Shown here piece by piece: positions 3,157 to 63,847 of a stretch of 64,000 nucleotides of DNA. A program made the translations under genes and the position numbers. Origin of the DNA: Actinomycetes bacterium (GTDB lineage Bacteria > Actinomycetota > Thermoleophilia > RBG-16-64-13); contig JAJFUK010000086.1 in assembly GCA_021372435.1 (NCBI GenBank), forward strand, positions 7,307-71,306, given 5' to 3'. Positions within the stretch are counted from its first letter, which is position 1. The number at the start of each line of letters is the position of its first letter. Below the pieces are notes generated by a model. That model ran no database searches, was not told the origin of the DNA, and saw only the letters and a program-made list of their open reading frames with translations.

Positions 3157-3171
3157 CGGATCCTCGTACTA

Positions 3172-3326
3172 CTCGAACCAAGATGAAGCCACGGCCGCCG
3201 GGTCCGCACTGGACGGCGCGAGGCGGCGTTCTCAGTCGCGCTCGTAGCGACGCTACGAGCGCTCCCTGCGTTCTTGCCTCGCACCCGCCCGTCGCAGCCT
3301 GATCGGCGTTGCTTCATTTTGAAGAC
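3172..3326. repeat. palindromic intergenic repeat, copy A (long imperfect hairpin, MITE/REP-like)
   Basis: Termini are CAAGATGAAGC (3179-3189) and GCTTCATTTTGAAG (3311-3324), inverted relative to each other. The interior is alignable with copy B (ATGAAGCCRCGGCCGCC ... CGCTCCCTGCGT ... GCTTCATTTTGAA). Lies between the ferredoxin stop and the nifS RBS. Confidence 0.7.
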
Positions 3327-3532
3327 GGACTCAGATACACAGCCCAGTCGGGGCACATATCCACGCACAGCGCACACGAATTGCACGCCTCCGGATCGGC
3401 AAGGAACGGCAGACCCTGATCATCGAACGCGATCGCCCCCTTGGGGCAGAAATGGCCGCAAATACCGCATTGTTTACAGCGCGTCAAGGTGAATACCGGC
3501 AGCTTCTTGTGTTGCACGTCCACTTTTGTCAT
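3314..3532 (-). CDS. 2x[4Fe-4S] ferredoxin
   Basis: 72 aa with CKQCGICGHFCP and CNSCALCVDMCP motifs. The last codons (TCA AAA TGA) lie inside the terminal inverted repeat of repeat copy A. The 5' end overlaps the transglutaminase 3' end by 59 nt. Confidence 0.8.
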   Translation of the reverse strand: MTKVDVQHKKLPVFTLTRCKQCGICGHFCPKGAIAFDDQGLPFLADPEACNSCALCVDMCPDWAVYLSPSSK

Positions 3533-8474: not shown

Positions 8475-9077
8475 TTCAGGCCCGGCGATCGCCGTCTGGA
8501 CGAGGGTCTTCAGGTCGGCGTCCGGTCGCCAGACCCCGGTGTCTCTGGCGATCAGTCCCGGCTTGAGATACAGCGCGAACGTCAAGGTCTCACGAGTGGG
8601 TAGGACGAAGGTCAGGGTCCCCTCCGGCGTCGCGCCGGCGAGTTCCGCCGTCGCTACTTCCGGATCCAGCCTCTCAGCCTTTGTGACGGCTCTTACAAGG
8701 ACCTGGACGTCCGGAAGATCCACACTCATGCCGTAGCTGGTGAGTGCCCCGCTCTCGTCCGGCACCGAGATGCTGACGAAGGCGGCGTCTTTCACTCTGC
8801 TCAGGTCCACGTTCCCCGGCAGTTCGAGCAGGTCATAGGGTGAGGTGACCACGGTGCCCGACGCGCCCGCGTCGGCGGCCGCGCGGCGCTCTTGGTCCCG
8901 GCTCCGATCGACCAAGAGCGCGACTACCACGATGGCCGCGATGGCCACGACCACGGCGACGCCTGCGACCAGTATCCACTTGCTAGGCTGCCTTAGAACA
9001 AAGCCTCGGCCGGCCGGCCATCTGGGCCGCCGCGATGCTGCGTCGCCAGTCGTATCGGGCGGGTCGGCCGGCATCAA
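8472..9077 (-). CDS. hypothetical single-pass membrane protein
   Basis: 201 aa. One clear TM helix (WILVAGVAVVVAIAAIVVVALLV) followed by a soluble domain. Codon bias is consistent with coding. I recognise no family. Confidence 0.5.
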   Translation of the reverse strand: MMPADPPDTTGDAASRRPRWPAGRGFVLRQPSKWILVAGVAVVVAIAAIVVVALLVDRSRDQERRAAADAGASGTVVTSPYDLLELPGNVDLSRVKDAAFVSISVPDESGALTSYGMSVDLPDVQVLVRAVTKAERLDPEVATAELAGATPEGTLTFVLPTRETLTFALYLKPGLIARDTGVWRPDADLKTLVQTAIAGPE

Positions 9078-9246
9078 ACCCCTCCGTTCCCGGTCTTCAT
9101 GTCACCGGACCATGGCCGCCGGTGGTCGTGCCTCCGGTGGTCGCGCGGTAAGGGTACCCCAACAAGGGAAGGCCGGCCATCGGATCCACAGCGAGCGAAA
9201 GCGCCACATGGAGCGGTGTGCTCTGCGGGGCGAGTCCACAGGGCGC

Positions 9247-9288: not shown

Positions 9289-9784
9289 GGCGATGACGGG
9301 AACGAGTAGGCGCCGCTCTTCGCTCGGAGCGAGCCGGGGACGGTGGGAGCCCGGCGGGAACCGGCGTCCGAATATCATCCCCGAGCCGCCAGCCGAACGG
9401 TCGAGCCGACGCCGGCGAGGGCGCAAGCGTCGAGTCCCACAAGGGAACGTGCGCCGAACCGGCGGACCCCGCCGCAGCAAGGCGGATGGCGCTTCTCAGT
9501 AGACCTGGCCGGGTCCTTCCCGTCATAGAAGGGGAGCGTGGACGGTCGAGGCTGGGCGGCGCCGCGAGAGGGCGGGTCCGGCTGCGACGGCGAAGCGTTC
9601 ACTGAGTGGGCCGCACCGGTCGGTACCGCTGTAGGGCGGTGTCGAGCGGGGCAAGGGCAGGCGCGTCGAGCGCCGGCTCCCGGCCAAGTAGGGTGGTACC
9701 GCGGGTCACGTCCCGTCCCTACGCGCAGATGCTCCGGCGTAGTGAGCCGGCAGGCGCAGCGCGGGGCGGGGCGTATTTGTTTGT
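9289..9784 (+). promoter_or_regulatory. T-box riboswitch leader (Ile specifier AUC) controlling ileS
   Basis: Stem I 5' side: GGCGAUGA K-turn (9289-9296), CGGG, GAGUA S-turn half (9304-9308), GGCGCC upper helix. Distal elements: AGCGA AG-bulge (9328-9332) and GGUGGGA distal loop (9342-9348). Stem I 3' side: GGCGUCC, GAA (9370-9372), U, AUC (9374-9376), A, UCCCCG. T-box core AAGUAGGGUGGUACCGCGGG lies at 9686-9705. The antiterminator is GUAGGG / 7-nt bulge UGGUACC / GCGGG...CCCGU / CCCUAC (9688-9722). Confidence 0.85.
9708..9784 (+). terminator. T-box terminator helix plus U-rich tract
   Basis: ACGUCCCGUCCC (9708-9719, the 3' half of the antiterminator) pairs with GGGGCGGGGCGU (9763-9774). GCGC (9723-9726) pairs with GCGC (9754-9757). 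AUUUGUUUGU follows at 9775-9784. This helix is mutually exclusive with the antiterminator. Confidence 0.7.
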
Positions 9785-9888
9785 GGGGTGGAGGTCGCCC
9801 CAGCCGCTGCCGGGCGGCCCGGGGCAGCGGAGGCCGGGCCGGTGTGAGCGACCGCGACACCCGTGAGCAGGGTTCACGAGGAGGGCTT

Positions 9889-12800: not shown

Positions 12801-13128
12801 GTCGCCGGAGTTGCTACAGGAGGGGCTGGCTCGGGAGTTGGTCCATCACATACAGAACACGCGGAAAGCGGCCGGCTTTCAGATCGACGACCGCATCCGT
12901 CTCTGGGTGACCGGCCCAGACGAGATCGCAGACATGCTCGCCGTCCACGGCGAGTGGGTGCAACGGGAGACCCTGGCCGTGAGCCTCGAGGTGACGCGGG
13001 CGGCCGACGATGACACGAGGGCCGTGGTGGCGACGCGTCCGGCTCAGCGCGACGCTGTGCCCGGTGCATACCGTGAGGAGTTGAGGGTGAACGGCCTCCC
13101 GGTGACGATCGCAGTGGCGAAGGCTTAG
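9889..13128 (+). CDS. ileS: isoleucine--tRNA ligase
   Basis: Start ATG 9889 follows GAGGAGG. N-terminus reads FPALEERILGWWKE...YEGPPTANGRPGVHHVLARV (HIGH-type motif). KMSKRLGN (KMSKS) and Zn-type cysteines CPRCGT / CWRCDT / CPRCG are present. The ORF-track extension 9538..9888 is the T-box leader, not protein. Confidence 0.95.
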   Translation: MAGRYRAVDTGQSFPALEERILGWWKERSIFEKSLESRAGDSEWVFYEGPPTANGRPGVHHVLARVFKDIYPRYKTMRGYYVARKAGWDCHGLPVELEIERLLGFDHKEQIEAYGVAEFNRLCRESVTAYVDDWNRLTERIGMWLDLDDPYMTMADDYIESVWWILSEFAKQDLLYEGYKVVPYCPRCGTALSSHEVASGYQMVTDPSIYVRFPLCGRKTPDEPPAQEVAQDGRPVSLLVWTTTPWTLISNVAVAVGPDIQYARARLGEEHLILAADLVTAVLGSEAVIEETFPGSELVGRHYRAPYDFVKPDKPAWRVIAGDFVATDEGTGIVHIAPAFGADDMAVGQANDLPVIMPVDEEARFTAEITPWAGKFVKEADAGIMDDLESRGLLYAREPYEHNYPFCWRCDTPLIYYAKTSWYVRTTARKDQVLAANEEVTWYPDHLKHGRFGKWLENNIDWSLSRDRYWGTPLPVWRCANGHDTIVGSRAELSGLAGRDLSTLELHRPYVDEVVFACPRCGAEARRIEAVIDAWFDSGSMPMAQWHYPFENQETWEKRFPADFICEAIDQTRGWFYSLLAISALLTGHSCYRNVLCLGHILDSEGRKMSKRLGNVVDPWSILDRQGADALRWYLLTVSSPWFPRRFGPENVDEVVRKFILTLWNTYSFYTLYANIDGFDPAEHDVAAVDRSLMDRWILGDLHILIKKVTAELDEYDAFAAGRAIADFVDELSNWYVRRSRRRFWKSEADADKIAAYLTLNRCLVTISELLAPFAPFLAEEIYQNLVAERSSEAQESVHLVDWPVADEALIDEDLSFRMAVARQVVNLGRAARNSAQIKTRQPVEVAVVACRGRERAALESLASVVAEELNVKALEYVDSAGRLVTYVIKPNYRTLGPRFGKNMPAVAAALAALSAEETADRVAGGHPVVVTVDGREYEFTPEDFVIESHERDGFRVERDGALAVGISTRLSPELLQEGLARELVHHIQNTRKAAGFQIDDRIRLWVTGPDEIADMLAVHGEWVQRETLAVSLEVTRAADDDTRAVVATRPAQRDAVPGAYREELRVNGLPVTIAVAKA

Positions 13129-13131
13129 AAC

Positions 13132-13291
13132 TCGCTTCAAAATGAAGCCGCGGCCGCCCAGTGCCCGGCGGGCGGCGCGATAGCGCGTCCTCGGTCGCGC
13201 CAATAGCGCCGCTACTCACGCTCCCTGCGTCCTCCTCTCGCGCTCGCCCGGCTTGTCCCTTGCGGCGGAGCTTCATTTTGAAACGGGTTTT
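13132..13291. repeat. palindromic intergenic repeat, copy B (full length)
   Basis: TTCAAAATGAAGC (13136-13148) and GCTTCATTTTGAA (13270-13282) are perfect 13-nt terminal inverted repeats. The interior is imperfectly self-complementary. The unit is flanked by the direct 8-mer CTTAGAAC (13124-13131 and 13292-13299). Lies between the convergent ileS and TPR gene ends. Confidence 0.75.
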
Positions 13292-13449
13292 CTTAGAACG
13301 AGTCCGAAGAACCCGCCGGCTTCATCCCCTGCCGGGCCTGGGCCACAGCCGGCGAAGCCCCTGACCAACTCTTGACTCGAGCGGCCCACACTCGACCTCG
13401 ATCTCGTCAGGCGGCGGGCCTTTGCATGGCGTTCCTGAGCGGCTGCGAC

Positions 13450-14094
13450 TCAGGTCGTCGTGGTCGTGGTGCCGGTCAGCTCCTTCTTGTAGGTCTCGAG
13501 CCAACTCTTGTCGTCGCCGGTGGTCGCGGCGATGCCCTGATCCAGAAGACTCAGGGCTGCGTCGGCCTTGCCTTCGCTCCTCAGTATCACGGCCAGGTTG
13601 ACATAGGGGTAGGCGTACGTGGGGTCGAGCGCGATCGCTTTCTCGTACTGAGTCTTCGCCTCATCCCATTTCTTCCAATCGCGCAGGACGTTGCCGTAGT
13701 TGTTCCTCGTCGGGGCGTCGTCCTTCAGTTGGAGCATCTTCTCGTAGGTCCTGGCTGCCGCCTCGTATCGCTCGGTGTTGTACTGAGCGATGGCCAGTTC
13801 CTGGAGGGCCGCCAGGTCCTCGGGGGCCGCTGCGGCCGCTGCTTCCAATGCGGGCAAGGCGGCTTCGTATTCCGCTACCGTCCGGCCTCCGACGATGACG
13901 CGCTCCGTGTTGATGGTGACATCGTCGCTCGCGACGGTGCTCGTCGGACCGGGTGTGGAGGCCGCCGTACCGCCCGTTGTCGTGGTTACATCGTTCCCGG
14001 CCGGGTCTTCACAACCGATCGCGACCCAACTCAGGGCGATGAGTGCGATCAGACTCAGTATCAGTGGGGGGCGTTTCCTCATCGGCCTTATCAT
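13450..14094 (-). CDS. TPR-repeat lipoprotein
   Basis: MIRPMRKRPPLILSLIALIALSWVAIGC gives a signal peptide plus lipobox. TPR-like repeats follow (AIAQYNTERYEAAARTYEKML, YGNVLRDWKKWDEAKTQYEKAIALDP, YVNLAVILRSEGKADAALSLLDQG), then a poly-Thr tail. The start (14094 vs 14082/14130) is uncertain. Confidence 0.75.
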   Translation of the reverse strand: MIRPMRKRPPLILSLIALIALSWVAIGCEDPAGNDVTTTTGGTAASTPGPTSTVASDDVTINTERVIVGGRTVAEYEAALPALEAAAAAAPEDLAALQELAIAQYNTERYEAAARTYEKMLQLKDDAPTRNNYGNVLRDWKKWDEAKTQYEKAIALDPTYAYPYVNLAVILRSEGKADAALSLLDQGIAATTGDDKSWLETYKKELTGTTTTTT

Positions 14095-16558: not shown

Positions 16559-18009
16559 CAGGCCGGCTCTTCCACCCACAGCAGACCCGCCTCCCAACGA
16601 TCGTCAGGGAGCGCGCGGTCCAGTCTTACCCGGGCAAAGCGGTTCATCAGGGTGTCGTCTCCGCTCAGAAGGACTTCCTGGTAGCTGCCTGTGAGGCCGA
16701 CCAGCCGCCCGTCCGGATGCCGCTCCCGGAGGACCAGGGCCCGTTGCTCCATCCCGGTCAATCTGCGGCGGAACGTCTCCTTCTTACGCATGCCTAACGC
16801 GCGAAGGCGCACACTGCGGTCGTGGATGGTGTCCGGATGGACCTTGGGTTGCATCGCCGACGCCGGGGTCCCGGGCCGGTCGCTGTAGCTGAAGACGTGC
16901 AGATAGGTGAACGGCGCATGCTCGATGAAGGCAAGCGTGTCCTCGAACTCACGATCGGTCTCGCCCGGAAAACCGGCGATGACATCGGCGCCCAGAGCGG
17001 CATTGGGAAACCTATCGGCAAGTCGGGTGACCACCTCCAGATACTGTGCGGCCGTGTAGGGGCGGCCCATTCGACTGAGCACGGAGTCGGACCCGCTCTG
17101 GAGGGGCAGGTGGAAGTGGTGAGCGACCCGGTCGCCGGCTTCTTGGATCACGTCTTGGAGCGCCTCATCGGTCTCCAGGGGCTCGATCGAGCTGAGACGG
17201 TAGCGGCCCGCTCCTCCCCGGTCGAGAAGGACCGCGAGCAGATCGGCAAGCGAGCCCTCTCCCGTATCACGGCCCCAACTTCCCAGGTCGATGCCGGTCA
17301 GCACCACCTCATGGTGATCCCGGGAGACCAATAGGCGCACCTGTTCCAGCACCTGTGCCCTGGGCATGCTGCGCGCGGGGCCCCTGGCCAGAGGGATGAC
17401 GCAGTAGGCGCAGCGTGAATCGCAGCCCGTCTGGATCTTGAGGAAGGCGCGGGTGTACCCATAGAAGTGAGAGAAGAACGTGCCTTCGAAAGAAGGGTGA
17501 TCGACGTAGGGCGAGACCGTGACCAGTGGAGGGGGCGTGGTGCCCTCCGGGATCGTGGCGCCACCCTCCGGGATCGTGGCGCCACCCCCCCGGATCGTGG
17601 CGCCATCCTGCGCGTCCTCGGGGACCGCGGGGTGATCCTTGAGCCGTCCGGCCAGATGCTCGGCCAGCCGCGGCTTCTCCGTGTTGCCGAGGACAAGGTC
17701 GACCCCAGGGATGGCGGCCACCGCGTCGGGGCGCACTTGCGCGTAGCATCCGGTCACGGCGACGACGCAACCCGGGTCGAGGCGCTTGGCCGAGCGGATC
17801 TCGTTGCGGCAGGTCTTATCGCTCCTGGATGTGACCGTACAGGTGTTGATGACCCGGATGTCCGCGGACTCTTCCCAATCCACAAGCCGGTATCCCTCAG
17901 CCAGCAGAGCCTCCTGCATCTGGGCAGTCTCACACTGGTTCAGCCGGCAACCGATGGTGCGAAAGGCTACGGTGTTCCGCACCTGCGCCTGCGTATCGAG
18001 GAGGGGCAT
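16558..18009 (-). CDS. mtaB: radical-SAM methylthiotransferase (MtaB/MiaB family)
   Basis: N-terminal MTTase domain ([26 protein letters not shown]). Radical-SAM CDSRCAYC motif. TRAM-like C-terminus. Contains a repeat-encoded insertion between the domains. Confidence 0.88.
17537..17607. repeat. 21-bp tandem repeat (about 3.4 copies) inside mtaB
   Basis: Units are GTGGTGCCCTCCGGGATC, GTGGCGCCACCCTCCGGGATC, GTGGCGCCACCCCCCCGGATC and GTGGCGCCATC. The repeat is in frame (7 aa per unit) and encodes ...[22 protein letters not shown]... in the interdomain linker. Confidence 0.85.
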
Positions 18010-19461: not shown

Positions 19462-21621
19462 GTGCCCACGCTTCTCGCCTTCTTGGCGATCTACGCCGTT
19501 CTCCTCACCTTCTACAAGCCCAACCTGCTTTTCAGTCTCACCACGACCGCCGGCGGTGACACCGGCGCCCATCACTATCCGGCGCAGTACCTGATCCAGG
19601 AACTTCTGCCGAATTTCCGCCTCACCGGCTGGGCCCCCGGGTGGTACGCGGGCATGCCCATGCTCACGTTCTACTTCCCGTTCCCCTTCCTGCTGATCGC
19701 CATCCTCGATTGGTTCATCCCGTACCAGATAGCGTTCAAGATCGTCACGGTGCTCGGGGTCTTCGCCCTCCCTGCCGCGGCGTACGCTCTGGGGCGCCTG
19801 TGGAGGGTACGACGCCCGTTCCCCGCCCTGGCGGCCGTCATGGCCCTGGCCTTCCTTCTCATGGAGAGCTATTCCATCTACGGAGCCAACATCCTCAGCA
19901 CCCTGGCGGGCGAATTCGGATACATGCTGAGCTTCGCGCTGGTATTCCTCTTCCTGGGCACCGTGCATAGGGGGATGGAGAAGCCCGGCTTCAACATGCT
20001 CTTCGTGCTCAACTGTCTCATCCTGATGGCGCTGGTCCTCTCGCACATAGTAACGACCATCGTTCTGGTGTGTCTCGTGCCCGGGCTCCTGCTCGTGAAC
20101 CCGCGCTGGCGGTCGCTGGGTTATCTGGTCGCCGTGGCGGCGGTCGGCTTCTGTCTCAGCGCCTTCTGGTCGCTGCCGTTCGCCGGGAACCTGGAGTGGA
20201 CGGCCCACATGGCCTGGAACCAGCTGGACTCGATCAAGGACCTGCTGCCGACTGCGCTGTTGCCCGCGGCCGGTCTGGGTCTCGTAGGCATGGCCTACGC
20301 CGTTGCGCGCAAGGAGAAGAAGCTCCTACCGTTGGCTTGGATCACCTTCGTCACCCTGGTGCTCTTCTGGGTCCTGCCCGATGGTCGTCTTTGGAACGCG
20401 CGCATCCTGCCCTTCTTCTATTTCTCCATCCACTTGTGGGCGGCGTACGGCGCCACCTGGCTGGTGCGGCCTTTCATGGTGATGATGCACGACCTGTTCC
20501 GCCTACGCGGCCTGACCGCGCGGCGGATCTACGTGCCCGTGGTCGCGGTGGTCATCGGAGTAATCCTTATTCTGACCAGCACGACGGCCGCCGGCTGGAT
20601 CAAGTGGAACTACTCGGGCTATGAGGGTAAACCGATGTGGAGCCAGTACAAACAGATCAATGATTTCCTGAATACGTTGGAACCGGGCCGGGTGATGGTC
20701 GAGCACGGTCAGAAGCTGGACGAGTTCGGTACTCCTCGCGCGTTTGAGATCATCCCCTACTGGACCGATCTCGACACCATGGAAGGTACTCTGATGGAGG
20801 CTTCCTACACGGCTCCCTTCCATTTCATCAACCAGGCGGAGCTGTCCAAAGAGGCCAGCAATGCCATCATCGGTGTCGATTACCCGGGTCTCGACGTACC
20901 GATGGGCATCACTCATCTGCAGCTCATGAACATCCCCTACTTCATGACATTCTCCGAGGAGGTCACAAGCCAGGTCAAGGCCGACCCGCGGGCCGAGCTC
21001 TTGGCCGTCTTCGGCGACTACAACATCTTCCGCATATCCGGCTGCACCGGCTATGTCGAAGTGATGGAGAACCAGCCTGTTCGTCTCCAGGTCGAGCAGA
21101 GCGGGTGGCGCGATGTGGCCGTCGAGTGGTACCGGAACGAGGCGGATCTCACCACTCCGCTCGTGTGGGACAGGGGGGAAGAAGCTCTTCGCCGCTACGG
21201 ATCCATCACTCCCGACCAGATCTCCGCCTTGCCGGTGACCCCGGTCACGGCGGAGGGCTCCGTCACCAACGAGCGGCTGGAGAACGAGCGTCTCTCCTTC
21301 GATACGACCGCGGTCGGACAGCCGCATTGGATCAAGATCTCCTACTTCCCTAACTGGCACGTCGAGGGCGCGGAAGGGCCATATCTGGCTTCACCGTCGA
21401 TGATGATGGTCATCCCTACCCAGAGTCATGTCACTCTCTACTACGGGCGCACCGCAGCCAATACGGTCGGTCAAGTGTTGGAGGTTCTCGCCTGGATCCT
21501 TCTGTTAGGCCTCACCGCCTGGCGTACGGTACTGTGGCGTAGACGGAGACGATTGGCGGGTGCGGTGCAGAAGTCCGAGCCCGGCGTTGAGGGCAGGGAC
21601 GAAGCCCGTCGGGACCTTTAG
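19462..21621 (+). CDS. large polytopic membrane protein, putative GT-C-type glycosyltransferase
   Basis: 719 aa. About 12 or more N-terminal TM helices followed by a ~330-aa soluble domain and a C-terminal TM helix. The N-terminal GGDTGAHHYPAQYL...GWAPGWYAGMP resembles the uncharacterised membrane family often mislabelled as 6-pyruvoyl-tetrahydropterin-synthase-related. The function is inferred from GtrA/GT2 context. Confidence 0.75.
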   Translation: MPTLLAFLAIYAVLLTFYKPNLLFSLTTTAGGDTGAHHYPAQYLIQELLPNFRLTGWAPGWYAGMPMLTFYFPFPFLLIAILDWFIPYQIAFKIVTVLGVFALPAAAYALGRLWRVRRPFPALAAVMALAFLLMESYSIYGANILSTLAGEFGYMLSFALVFLFLGTVHRGMEKPGFNMLFVLNCLILMALVLSHIVTTIVLVCLVPGLLLVNPRWRSLGYLVAVAAVGFCLSAFWSLPFAGNLEWTAHMAWNQLDSIKDLLPTALLPAAGLGLVGMAYAVARKEKKLLPLAWITFVTLVLFWVLPDGRLWNARILPFFYFSIHLWAAYGATWLVRPFMVMMHDLFRLRGLTARRIYVPVVAVVIGVILILTSTTAAGWIKWNYSGYEGKPMWSQYKQINDFLNTLEPGRVMVEHGQKLDEFGTPRAFEIIPYWTDLDTMEGTLMEASYTAPFHFINQAELSKEASNAIIGVDYPGLDVPMGITHLQLMNIPYFMTFSEEVTSQVKADPRAELLAVFGDYNIFRISGCTGYVEVMENQPVRLQVEQSGWRDVAVEWYRNEADLTTPLVWDRGEEALRRYGSITPDQISALPVTPVTAEGSVTNERLENERLSFDTTAVGQPHWIKISYFPNWHVEGAEGPYLASPSMMMVIPTQSHVTLYYGRTAANTVGQVLEVLAWILLLGLTAWRTVLWRRRRRLAGAVQKSEPGVEGRDEARRDL

Positions 21622-21670
21622 CGGCACCCAAGCCGCCCGCCGGCCCCTCGAGGCGCTTGACTGCTCCATC

Positions 21671-21725
21671 CAAGATGAAGCCACCGCTGCCCAGTGCAAC
21701 CGGAACGGCGCTGCTTTATCTTGAA
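21671..21725. repeat. palindromic intergenic repeat, copy C (short, internally deleted)
   Basis: CAAGATGAAGCCACCGCTGCCCAGTGC ... GGCGCTGCTTTATCTTGAA. Both arms match the ends of copies A and B and pair with each other. Lies between convergent gene ends (21621 and 21734). Confidence 0.65.
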
Positions 21726-21733
21726 TGCAGTTC

Positions 21734-22636
21734 TCAGGGTACGGGGATGCCGGACTCGCACGGCACGCCGGTCTGGCACAAGCCGCAACCGTAACCGTCG
21801 AACCCGTACTCATGCTTCACGTAGTCTGCCGTCGCCGACTCGAGATGCTGGGCGCACGCCTTCTTGTCGCGGCCGCCCGGGGTGACTGAGCCCACCGGGC
21901 AGCGGTCCACGCACGCGGTGCACGAACGGTCGTGATAGAAGAGGCAATAGGCGAAGGGATCGGAGTACGAACGGGCAGTGGACGGGATGGCGGCGTGGAC
22001 GACGAGAGAGCCGAACCGGGCCGCCTGGCCTCGCTCCGTGATCAAGCCGCCGCACAGGCTGAACGTGCCCAGACCCGAGACATAGGCTACATGGCGCTCA
22101 GACCAGGTAGACGCCCGGCCGTAGGTGGGCGATTCGGTCTCCGTCCACTCGGGAAGCAGCGCCGGGGCGACGGCGGCGTACCCTTCGCTCGCCAGAGCCT
22201 TCACCAAAGCTCTTTGCAGGGAACGGCCGCACTTCTGACCGTAGATGCGGGACCGGGCCCAAGGTTCAGAGGGGAAACGGGTCTGGGCGCGATTCGCCTT
22301 CTTGGTGGCTTCGGTCTGGCAGAGCGCCCAACTGACCACGGTGAGTTCGTCCGGGCGCGGGTTGCCGGGGCCGGCGGCGGATGGCCCGCCGGCGGCGTCG
22401 TGGGCCTCCGCGGCCGCGGTCTGCGCAGCCGGCCAACCGAGGGTGAAGGCCTCTGCAGGCGACCAATGGAACTCACCGATGTGCTCCTTCAAGAAGTCAT
22501 AGAGGGGGTCGGCGCCGTTTGAGAAGCCGAGCACGAAACCATCCCAGGCTTGGTCGGTGGTGCCTGGACCGAGGTTGTTCTTCTCGGGGTCGGCGAGGAA
22601 CTCCTGGATAAAACGCGCTATGAACGCCCGAAGCAT
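21734..22636 (-). CDS. 4Fe-4S protein of the epoxyqueuosine-reductase (QueG)/reductive-dehalogenase-like family
   Basis: 300 aa. The C-terminal part reads HVAYVSGLGTFSLCGGLITERG...RFGS, then CTACVDRCP and CGLCQTGVPC cluster motifs. Family-level call only. Confidence 0.65.
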   Translation of the reverse strand: MLRAFIARFIQEFLADPEKNNLGPGTTDQAWDGFVLGFSNGADPLYDFLKEHIGEFHWSPAEAFTLGWPAAQTAAAEAHDAAGGPSAAGPGNPRPDELTVVSWALCQTEATKKANRAQTRFPSEPWARSRIYGQKCGRSLQRALVKALASEGYAAVAPALLPEWTETESPTYGRASTWSERHVAYVSGLGTFSLCGGLITERGQAARFGSLVVHAAIPSTARSYSDPFAYCLFYHDRSCTACVDRCPVGSVTPGGRDKKACAQHLESATADYVKHEYGFDGYGCGLCQTGVPCESGIPVP

Positions 22637-23125: not shown

Positions 23126-23198
23126 TGGAGGTAAGGGGACTCGAACCCCTGGCCTTCGCGATGCGAACGCGACGCTCTCCCAACTGAGCTATACCCCC
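23126..23198 (-). tRNA. tRNA-Ala (anticodon CGC)
   Basis: The reverse complement GGGGGTATAGCTCAGTTGGGAGAGCGTCGCGTTCGCATCGCGAAGGCCAGGGGTTCGAGTCCCCTTACCTCCA folds as a cloverleaf. The anticodon loop is TTCGCAT. The G3:U70 alanine identity pair and GTTCGAGTC T-loop are present. CCA is not encoded. Confidence 0.95.
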
Positions 23199-30035: not shown

Positions 30036-30323
30036 CCGTCGACCCTCCTCGAGTTCCCCGTGACTCACCGTGGCTCGGTACGACCTTCACCCATATAGTA
30101 TCGGTCCCCGGCTGCGGGGTATAGTGTCTTCGTCGGCCGGGCGGGCCAACTACTTGAGAACGCTTTAGGACCGGTCTCCGGATCGATCTCCGCCGGCAAG
30201 GATGCGCGGAGGGGGCGCGGCGTCACGGATGTGACGCCAGACCAGGCACCGTGTCGCCCGGCATCTACAGGACGGCTGCTCTTCCATTCTGAACCGAGTT
30301 CTTGGGCAAAGGGGAACCTTGTC

Positions 30324-41552: not shown

Positions 41553-41649
41553 GGAGCGGCTTTCGGTCTGGTGGCCGGCCCGGTCTTCAAAACCGGTGTT
41601 GGGGGGTAGGCCCCTCCAGGGTGGGTTCGATTCCCATGCCGCTCCGCCA
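41553..41649 (+). tRNA. selC: tRNA-Sec (anticodon UCA), CCA encoded
   Basis: GGAGCGGC...GCCGCTCC forms an 8-bp acceptor stem. The D-stem is 6 bp (UCGGUC/GGCCGG) with a 4-nt loop. The anticodon loop is CUUCAAA. A long variable arm (GGGGGG..CCCCUCC) and a 5-bp T-stem with UUCGAUU follow, then discriminator G plus CCA. This is the 8/5 bacterial tRNA-Sec geometry. Confidence 0.95.
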
Positions 41650-63779: not shown

Positions 63780-63838
63780 GCCACGTCGACGTGCCGCCCA
63801 GTACCCATTGCGGACAGGCGGCCGCGCCTTCATCCTGG
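63780..63838. repeat. possible degenerate copy D of the palindromic repeat
   Basis: GCCGCCCAGTAC (63793-63804) resembles GCCGCCCAGTGC of copy B. GGCGGCCGCGCCTTCATCCTGG (63817-63838) resembles the reverse complement of CAAGATGAAGCCACGGCCGCC. It again lies between convergent gene ends. The match is weak. Confidence 0.3.
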
Positions 63839-63847
63839 ACGGGGGCC

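Follow-up and report, generated by a model that had tools for sequence, protein, structure and literature searches.

Palindromic repeats at gene ends of an uncultured actinobacterium are probably miniature transposable elements inserted at CTNAG targets

What are the long GC-rich palindromes that recur at gene ends in an uncultured actinobacterium, and what has placed them there? We addressed this question for a 64,000-nt stretch of contig JAJFUK010000086.1 (assembly GCA_021372435.1), referred to below as the window. An original prediction had described four copies of the repeat in it (A to D) as resembling a transposable element of the miniature inverted-repeat kind (MITE) or a repetitive extragenic palindrome (REP) that doubles as a terminator or RNA-stability element. 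Terminal inverted repeats, target-site duplications of the form TNA, copy number, empty sites in relatives, and the lack of a conserved reading frame or Rfam match together indicate that the repeats are very probably a MITE, a non-autonomous DNA transposon of about 163 bp that duplicates TNA at a CTNAG target and whose position at stop codons is best explained by that target and by selection. This diagnosis is independent of the family to which the mobilizing transposase is assigned, and it makes the element an ordinary kind of bacterial repeat, though a real one.

The repeat family is readily detected within the window, where the 13-mer TTCAAAATGAAGC, allowing up to two mismatches, occurs six times versus 0.31 occurrences expected by chance. 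Copies A and B are full-length members of one family, sharing 72% identity over an ungapped alignment of 153 nt and matching the family profile with 114.8–129.6 bits (E 1e-34 to 5e-38) and 132–151 bits, respectively. The perfect 13-nt inverted termini originally noted in copy B are present at 13136–13148 and 13270–13282. Copy A had been said to share both; its right terminus is indeed perfect (3311–3323), but the left one is degenerate (CCAAGATGAAGC), and the copy has no recognizable target-site duplication. Copy C shares the first ~50 nt and gives two partial profile matches (21668–21711 and 21688–21734). It was correctly described as consisting of the two arms only, but extends over 75 nt rather than 55 and is most likely an internal-deletion derivative.

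Further copies occur well beyond the window. A scan of one genome per species with the left-end pattern gave 59 genome matches, many of them by chance; the pattern is repeated in four metagenome-assembled genomes (MAGs) of uncultured Actinomycetota (seven times in CAVPLM01 and five times in JAMDEO01, as well as in CAVQME01 and CAVQNN01), and both a Gaiellales MAG and 'Actinobacteria bacterium RBG_16_64_13' contain fragments. Scanning metagenome contigs with the terminus pattern ACTCGTTTCARAATGAAGC returned at least 120 loci, several exact matches (such as L091/L108/L177 and L066/L123/L147) being chance occurrences in unrelated coding or AT-rich DNA. An nhmmer profile search of the 1.19 Mb of retrieved loci identified 128 non-overlapping matches, 68 of them full-length (161–163 nt), and an alignment of 56 independent copies provided the family statistics on target-site duplication, coding, and pairing reported below. 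Uncultured Actinomycetota in metagenomes of wastewater, sediment, oil fields, and soil carry the family widely, with one subfamily from wastewater and sediment (...GAAGCCGCGGCCGCC...), which includes the window copies, and a second from soil (...GAAGCCTTGTGCCGCC...). Homologs of isoleucyl-tRNA synthetase (IleRS) place the window organism in a well-populated uncultured clade labeled Actinobacteria or Thermoleophilia, with closest relatives 84–87% identical, and near-identical DNA of the window is found in wastewater, oil-field, sludge, and sediment metagenomes. In three metagenomes, the depth over copy B is 30–50 times that of its flanks, and contigs break, with many different continuations, exactly at 13124–13127 and 13287–13292. 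The excess depth and the breaks point to dozens of close copies and provide an independent confirmation of the element's boundaries.

Where exactly does the element begin and end? Its consensus runs from GAACTCGTTTCARAATGAAGC to GCTTCATTCTGAAACGAGTTC, with a terminal inverted repeat of ~21 bp at the exact ends enclosing a GC-rich, imperfectly palindromic core, for a total size of 161–165 nt. Alignments A2 and A3 place the limits of conservation at GAACTCG (left) and CGAGTTC (right), and the true ends lie about 8 nt outside the 13-mers that had been taken as termini, on each side. Beyond them, the flanks read C-TNA-element-TNA-G, with the outer C present on the left in 40 of 56 copies and the outer G on the right in 32 of 56. 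Left-flanking triplets are mostly TTA (16), TAA (15), TGA (6), and CTA (6), and right-flanking ones TTA (15), TAA (12), and TGA (7). The two triplets are identical in 20 of the 56 copies, whereas shuffling of right flanks between copies gives an expectation of 8.6 ± 2.4 (p about 1e-4). TNA stands on both sides in 26 copies, with the same middle base in 18 and a complementary one in 1, which argues that the triplets are direct repeats, and hence target-site duplications, rather than an extension of the terminal inverted repeat. The preferred target is the interrupted palindrome CTNAG, with its central TNA duplicated.

Orthologous sites are empty in relatives of the window organism. The locus L061, with an IleRS 85% identical to that of the window, is syntenic across sites A and B. 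At site B, only 19 nt separate IleRS from the convergent TPR gene, versus 321 nt in the window, and at site A, 52 nt separate ferredoxin from nifS, versus ~157 nt. Site B is likewise empty in the closest relative (L183, 87% identical; 17 nt) and on P0006's contig (84%; 7 nt), as is site A in L062 (45 nt); in L060, which is the same organism as the window (100% identical protein), the site is filled. On either side of site A, the flanks can be aligned cleanly as far as the element. At the population level, no 'skip' joints across copy B, which would mark empty alleles, were found in four metagenomes.

The element is non-coding. Its only recurrent ATG-initiated frame is broken by premature stops in 30 of the 56 copies, and variability at the three codon positions (0.19, 0.16, and 0.21) shows no third-position bias; a coding reading starting at ATGAAGCC ('MKPRPP') was rejected on both counts. 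Rfam, searched to E≤10, gave no match at gathering scores, the best hit having an E of 0.25 and 17.6 bits versus a 45-bit cut-off.

Several observations nevertheless weigh against the MITE diagnosis or weaken its support. Identical target-site duplications are missing from 36 of the 56 copies, which dilutes the signal and fits with age. The best empty sites come from relatives only 84–87% identical in protein, and a single unduplicated TNA with alignable flanks was not obtained. No autonomous element with the family termini was found in the 1.19 Mb of retrieved loci, which we scanned for the terminus with up to 4–5 mismatches and for pairs 500–2,600 bp apart with TNA duplications; the open reading frames (ORFs) beside solo termini encode acyl-CoA dehydrogenase, methyltransferase-like, and housekeeping proteins, and no transposase. 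A blastn search of PLSDB plasmids with the consensus returned only chance GC-rich matches (E≥0.5), and a scan of viral contigs gave 0 matches. The cognate transposase with the same termini, for which the original prediction had suggested a search, was found in none of the three. In either subfamily, CGTCCTCGGTCGC and CTGCGTCCTTGC form internal blocks with a conservation of ≥90%; such blocks, together with the compensatory changes in the hairpin described below, are not obviously needed by a purely selfish element. Finally, Tc4 of Caenorhabditis elegans, a member of the Tc1/mariner-IS630 superfamily, also recognizes CTNAG and duplicates the central TNA only (10.1101/2023.11.06.565293); the target alone is therefore not diagnostic of a transposase family.

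We propose the following model for the spread of the element. A transposase acting in trans would bind both termini and excise or copy the element, insertion at a CTNAG-like target would duplicate the central TNA, and the inserted copies would then decay, lose their cores to give short forms such as copy C, or become truncated, as in copy E. The odds that the mobilizing transposase is IS5/IS1031-like are roughly even, an assignment drawn from the target-site duplication by itself, since no autonomous element was found. Bacterial members of the IS630 family usually duplicate TA. Elements of the IS1031 group of the IS5 family target 5'-TNA-3' and leave an exclusive 3-bp direct repeat on insertion, the stated hallmark in the description of the group used here (PMC12016507).

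Why do the copies lie at gene ends? The original prediction that they always do so is true, and a CTNAG/TNA target combined with selection offers a simpler explanation of it. Among the 40 copies for which both neighbors could be called, 25 lie between convergent genes, 13 between tandem genes, and 2 between divergent ones, and the adjoining gene ends comprise 75 3' ends and 23 5' ends. The window's own 49 intergenic regions are divided into 8 convergent, 32 tandem, and 9 divergent, and the convergent location is thus enriched 3.8-fold (25/40 versus 8/49). In tandem contexts, no orientation bias is apparent (9 copies one way, 4 the other). About 27 adjacent stop codons fall on the duplicated triplet, either by itself or joined to the terminal base, as in TAA-G followed by AACTCG at a left end or CGAGTTC followed by TCA at a right end (the arrangement at copy C). 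TAA and TGA are both instances of TNA, as are their complements, TTA and TCA, and TAG occurs within CTAG; with 65% G+C and 88% of the genome coding, stop codons therefore make up many of the tolerated targets. In the window, 23 CTNAG sites lie outside genes and 6 of these overlap a stop codon, so that the motif alone would put about a quarter of tolerated insertions on stops; the observed share, ~38% of copies, is only modestly above that. Since the duplication would regenerate the stop codon, the gene would survive the insertion, and purifying selection would remove insertions into genes, promoters, and 5' leaders, leaving those at 3' ends, chiefly convergent ones. We infer selection as the cause of the context bias.

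The individual sites illustrate how closely the element and stop codons are interlaced. Copy B lies between the IleRS stop codon (TAG, 13126–13128), which is composed of the TA of the left target-site duplication and the element's first base, G, and the stop of the convergent TPR gene (13450). Copy C lies between stops at 21621 and 21734, its right end abutting TCA (21734–21736), the stop (TGA) of the convergent minus-strand gene, and candidate D lies in a gap of 87 nt that is bounded by convergent stops (63760 and 63848); the gene coordinates thus bear out the convergent placement first given for these three. Copy A was correctly placed between a stop codon and the next gene, with the refinement that the stop lies inside the element: the TGA of the minus-strand ferredoxin gene (3314–3316) is located within the right terminus, which supplies the gene's last codons (TCT TCA AAA TGA), and five residues plus a stop, read from flank and terminus, stand in for ferredoxin's variable C-terminal tail. 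At its other end, the element is 14 nt from the nifS start codon (3156). Truncated copies at other loci (L010:1536–1585 and L149/L161) have a neighboring gene that ends in or directly beside a solo terminus, encoding an acyl-CoA dehydrogenase in L010 and an S-adenosylmethionine-dependent methyltransferase-like protein in L149/L161, and show that element fragments can supply or abut protein C-termini.

Could the hairpin have acquired a role at the RNA level? Long hairpins form on both strands of copies A, B, and C, with z-scores of -3.7 to -5.2 relative to dinucleotide-shuffled controls (copy A, -80/-84 kcal/mol, z -4.5/-4.6; copy B, z -4.3/-5.2; copy C, z -3.7), and most family copies fold end to end with a mean minimum free energy of -84 kcal/mol. 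Across the 56 copies, helix 1, formed by the terminal repeats, is 91.7% paired, and a hairpin of 48 pairs is 86.7% paired, versus 30–45% when the partners are slid by 1–3 columns. Pairs changed on both sides number 29, versus 13–23 in the slid controls, the covariation score is 0.186 versus 0.035–0.074, and the central helix switches between CG and GC and among AU, GC, and CG between subfamilies, in 26–30 sequences. The palindrome is thus actively maintained by compensatory changes. Selection for an RNA or DNA hairpin could be the cause, as could template-switch correction of quasi-palindromes or founder effects of subfamily master copies.

One alternative is an exapted RNA element, a hairpin in the 3' untranslated region (UTR) kept as a (bidirectional) terminator or as protection against 3' exonucleases, as proposed for SPRITE, ERIC, and REP sequences. 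The enrichment between convergent genes and the maintained pairing agree with it, as does the architecture of an A-run, a GC-rich stem, and a T-run, and SPRITE and REP elements share the convergent-gene bias and have proposed RNA-level roles (PMC3184786, PMC10969869). Purifying selection predicts the same bias equally well, however, and template-switch repair or subfamily founder effects could yield the covariation. The hairpin with a U-rich tail in the original prediction did not hold up: the presumed tail, GCUUCAUUUUGAA, does not follow the stem but forms its 3' arm, and the arm of most copies reads CAUUCUGAAA, in which TTCT interrupts the T-run (CATTCTGAAA) and leaves no U-tract. A consensus terminator scan found none at copy A or B. 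A canonical intrinsic terminator was rejected on these grounds. Moreover, tandem pairs account for 13 of the 40 copies, and several copies end only 14–16 nt upstream of start codons (copy A before nifS–nifU, and copies in L014, L013, and L010), positions at which a strong terminator would be polar. Family members do occur within RNA contigs from four metatranscriptomes of two studies, and these contigs extend beyond the element, suggesting that copies are co-transcribed with their neighbors, with the qualification that they are low-depth assemblies that may include DNA. Sites A and B themselves had no coverage at 95% likeness in the RNA runs, which yielded sparse low-depth assembled contigs only. 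Overall, we consider an exapted RNA element a tentative and rather improbable account.

A divergent copy (left side ...AAGAACGAAGCCACGGCCGCCAAGACACAC), aligned to window positions 13169–13241, was assembled at a depth of 3–9.5 from metatranscriptomes X17, X22, and X23 of two studies, and may be part of a well-expressed transcript or a stable RNA fragment.

The two ideas may also be combined. One may speculate that a CTNAG-tuned transposase uses stop codons as safe-harbor sites, and that the hairpin was subsequently selected because it acts at 3' ends in both directions and without need of a U-tract, as a terminator or mRNA stabilizer, across a large clade of uncultured Actinomycetota. We regard this extension as unlikely, somewhat more so than exaptation as such; if true, mobile DNA would seed 3' UTR structure genome-wide.

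The remaining explanations fare far worse than the MITE reading. REP sequences and their REPIN doublets are GC-rich extragenic palindromes enriched between convergent genes (PMC3184786), and the present repeat resembles them in this respect and in forming a long hairpin from either strand. REPs, however, are only 20–40 nt long, have neither terminal inverted repeats nor target-site duplications, and are mobilized as single-stranded DNA by RAYT, an IS200/IS605-like tyrosine transposase. A unit of ~163 nt with true 21-bp inverted repeats at its very ends, significantly matched 3-bp direct repeats in the flanks, no conserved GTAG-type head, and copies that occur singly rather than as clustered doublets does not fit this description, and the REP-like label of the original prediction has to be dropped; we consider a REP origin very improbable. 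Slightly less credible still is a gene for a structured non-coding RNA, or a family of cis-regulatory RNAs, that is conserved for its own function and not mobile. The strikingly constant length, the structural covariation, and the orientation-specific internal blocks (profile scores of ~130–170 bits on the same strand versus ~36 bits on the other) would be expected of such a family. The genes flanking the repeat, however, are unrelated between copies, its orientation to them is inconsistent, and target-site duplications, empty sites, and numerous truncated or internally deleted copies mark it as mobile, in addition to the failed Rfam search. The numbers of G-U and A-C mismatches (49 versus 162), which are dominated by a few inherited columns, favor, if anything, the opposite strand. 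An integron attC site at the end of a gene cassette, to which a right-sized imperfect palindrome directly after stop codons might be likened, can be dismissed with near certainty, given that the ends do not fit RYYYAAC/GTTRRRY (the right end reads GTTCTNAG), that the neighbors are housekeeping genes (IleRS, nifS) in conserved synteny rather than cassette arrays, and that most copies lie between convergent genes. The attC and REP readings were accordingly rejected on end motifs, target-site duplication, and context.

Table 1. Copies of the repeat and associated features in the window.
Feature	Positions	Strand	Length (nt)	Description
Copy A	3170-3332	+	163	Full-length but old copy of the probable MITE
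Copy B	13128-13292	+	165	Full-length, best-preserved copy; termini GAACTCGCTTCAAAATGAAGC / GCTTCATTTTGAAACGGGTTTTC
Copy B, left target-site duplication	13125-13127	+		TTA
Copy B, right target-site duplication	13293-13295	+		TTA; C-TTA-G context on both sides
Copy C	21659-21733	+	75	Short form, two arms only
Copy E	30195-30302	-		Decayed, truncated copy, absent from the original prediction; profile E=6.5e-5, model positions 2-110
Candidate D	63788-63839	-		Short-form remnant, doubtful; profile E=0.38

The remaining copies in the window are less well preserved (Table 1). Copy E has one recognizable terminus (AACTCGGTTCAGAATGGAAG, minus strand), which precedes the ATG of a CpsB/CapC-like gene (Pfam) by ~20 nt, and folding of this copy revealed no hairpin signal. 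Candidate D, originally proposed as a weak copy, contains ATGAAGGCGCGGCCGCCTG on the minus strand, which matches the family's ATGAAGCCGCGGCCGCCTA at 17 of 19 positions, but the region (63780–63845) folds no better than shuffled controls (z about 0), and its status as a short-form remnant is doubtful. A marginal profile match at 8993–9056 (E=0.0027), covering the left third of the element and starting with TTAGAACAAAGCC, sits in the long gap upstream of IleRS and may be another remnant. Relative to the conserved IleRS start (MAGRYRAV...), the mechanical ORF begins 117 codons farther upstream (region 9538–9888), and the interval from the equivalent of position 9210 to the true start forms a long, leader-like gap that is also present in relatives; no T-box or other Rfam family was found in it. 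At site B, the 155 nt between the right target-site duplication of copy B and the TPR stop codon (13296–13450) are missing in all relatives, which have 7–19 nt there in total. This stretch starts with GAACGAGTCC and includes a GGCTTC...GAAGCC hairpin; it may represent a decayed insertion of greater age, in or beside which copy B landed. Three tandem 21-nt units (CCCTCCGGGATCGTGGCGCCA) at 17543–17612, which also form an overlapping palindrome around GTGGCGCCAC, are unrelated to the MITE. The window further encodes an ordinary tRNA at 23126–23198 (-) and a tRNA-Sec gene at 41553–41645 (+; Rfam, 77.9 bits), the latter suggesting that this actinobacterium probably makes selenoproteins.

Outside the window, the family includes several kinds of derivatives. 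Arm-only short forms like copy C (L042/L033, L111, L126, L163, L179, and L180) look like deletions between GACGGC repeats, and there are also mini-hairpins of ~49 nt in which the two terminal repeats are joined, as well as solo ends truncated by neighboring genes. An extra block of 12–17 nt (GCCCTCGGGGCGG / GCCCTCTGGGCGG) occupies the same place in the left arm in L008:4100–4113, L065, and L038, and the mirrored place in the right arm in one divergent copy (L037:3540–3560); a sub-variant is one possibility, a small nested insertion another. In the contig pairs L125/L160 and L121/L127, one flank of the copy is common and the other different, which points to recombination between copies or to chimeric assembly at the repeat.

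What is the relevance of the element? A consensus, boundaries, and a target rule are now defined for an abundant repeat in poorly known, uncultured Actinomycetota. This definition helps the assembly of MAGs, in which contigs break at the repeat, and their annotation, which has to contend with spurious ORFs and altered C-termini such as that of the ferredoxin beside copy A; the presence or absence of individual insertions could serve for strain typing. The element also offers a clean example of how a TNA/CTAG preference in a high-G+C genome places mobile DNA on stop codons. If its hairpin does function at the RNA level, the element would also bear on the debate about U-tract-less terminators in Actinobacteria.

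How does the element compare with known systems? In form, it resembles a class of long palindromic MITEs of enterobacteria and neisseriae that includes ERIC/IRU, YPAL, and Correia elements. Their intergenic copies number from dozens to hundreds and are co-transcribed with neighboring genes, and internal-deletion variants exist. Like the element described here, ERIC/IRU (~127 bp), YPAL (~168 bp), and Correia (100–155 bp) are imperfect palindromes over their whole length with terminal inverted repeats (PMC3184786), but they are unrelated to it in sequence, have other target-site duplications (TA for Correia), and reside in other hosts, and the present element is known from sequence alone. SPRITE is likewise a small, non-autonomous hairpin repeat with a proposed action at the RNA level (PMC3184786, PMC10969869); it differs in phylum, sequence, and size (~105 nt), and in carrying a recognizable rho-independent terminator motif, which the present element lacks. 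REP, BIME, and REPIN sequences share the extragenic, convergent-gene setting but are set apart by their size, their ends, and their link to RAYT. With the IS1031 group (IS1031, ISLrh), the element shares the 5'-TNA-3' target and the exclusive 3-bp duplication. The inverted repeat of ISLrh, GAACCTGTCTAGTATCT, the one member sequence quoted in the source used here (PMC12016507), starts with GAAC as does GAACTCGTTTCAAAATG of our element, and comparison of the two gives GAAC..GT.T in common, or only ~8 of 17 positions. MITEs derived from the group are likewise small and devoid of a transposase; autonomous members have a DDE transposase of the IS5 type, which in many is encoded by orfA/orfB with a -1 frameshift. 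The strong C...G context that extends the target to CTNAG is not part of the description of IS1031 in that source. The same context is found in Tc4, but this is a eukaryotic element with a DDD transposase and other termini, and the resemblance is a functional analogy only.

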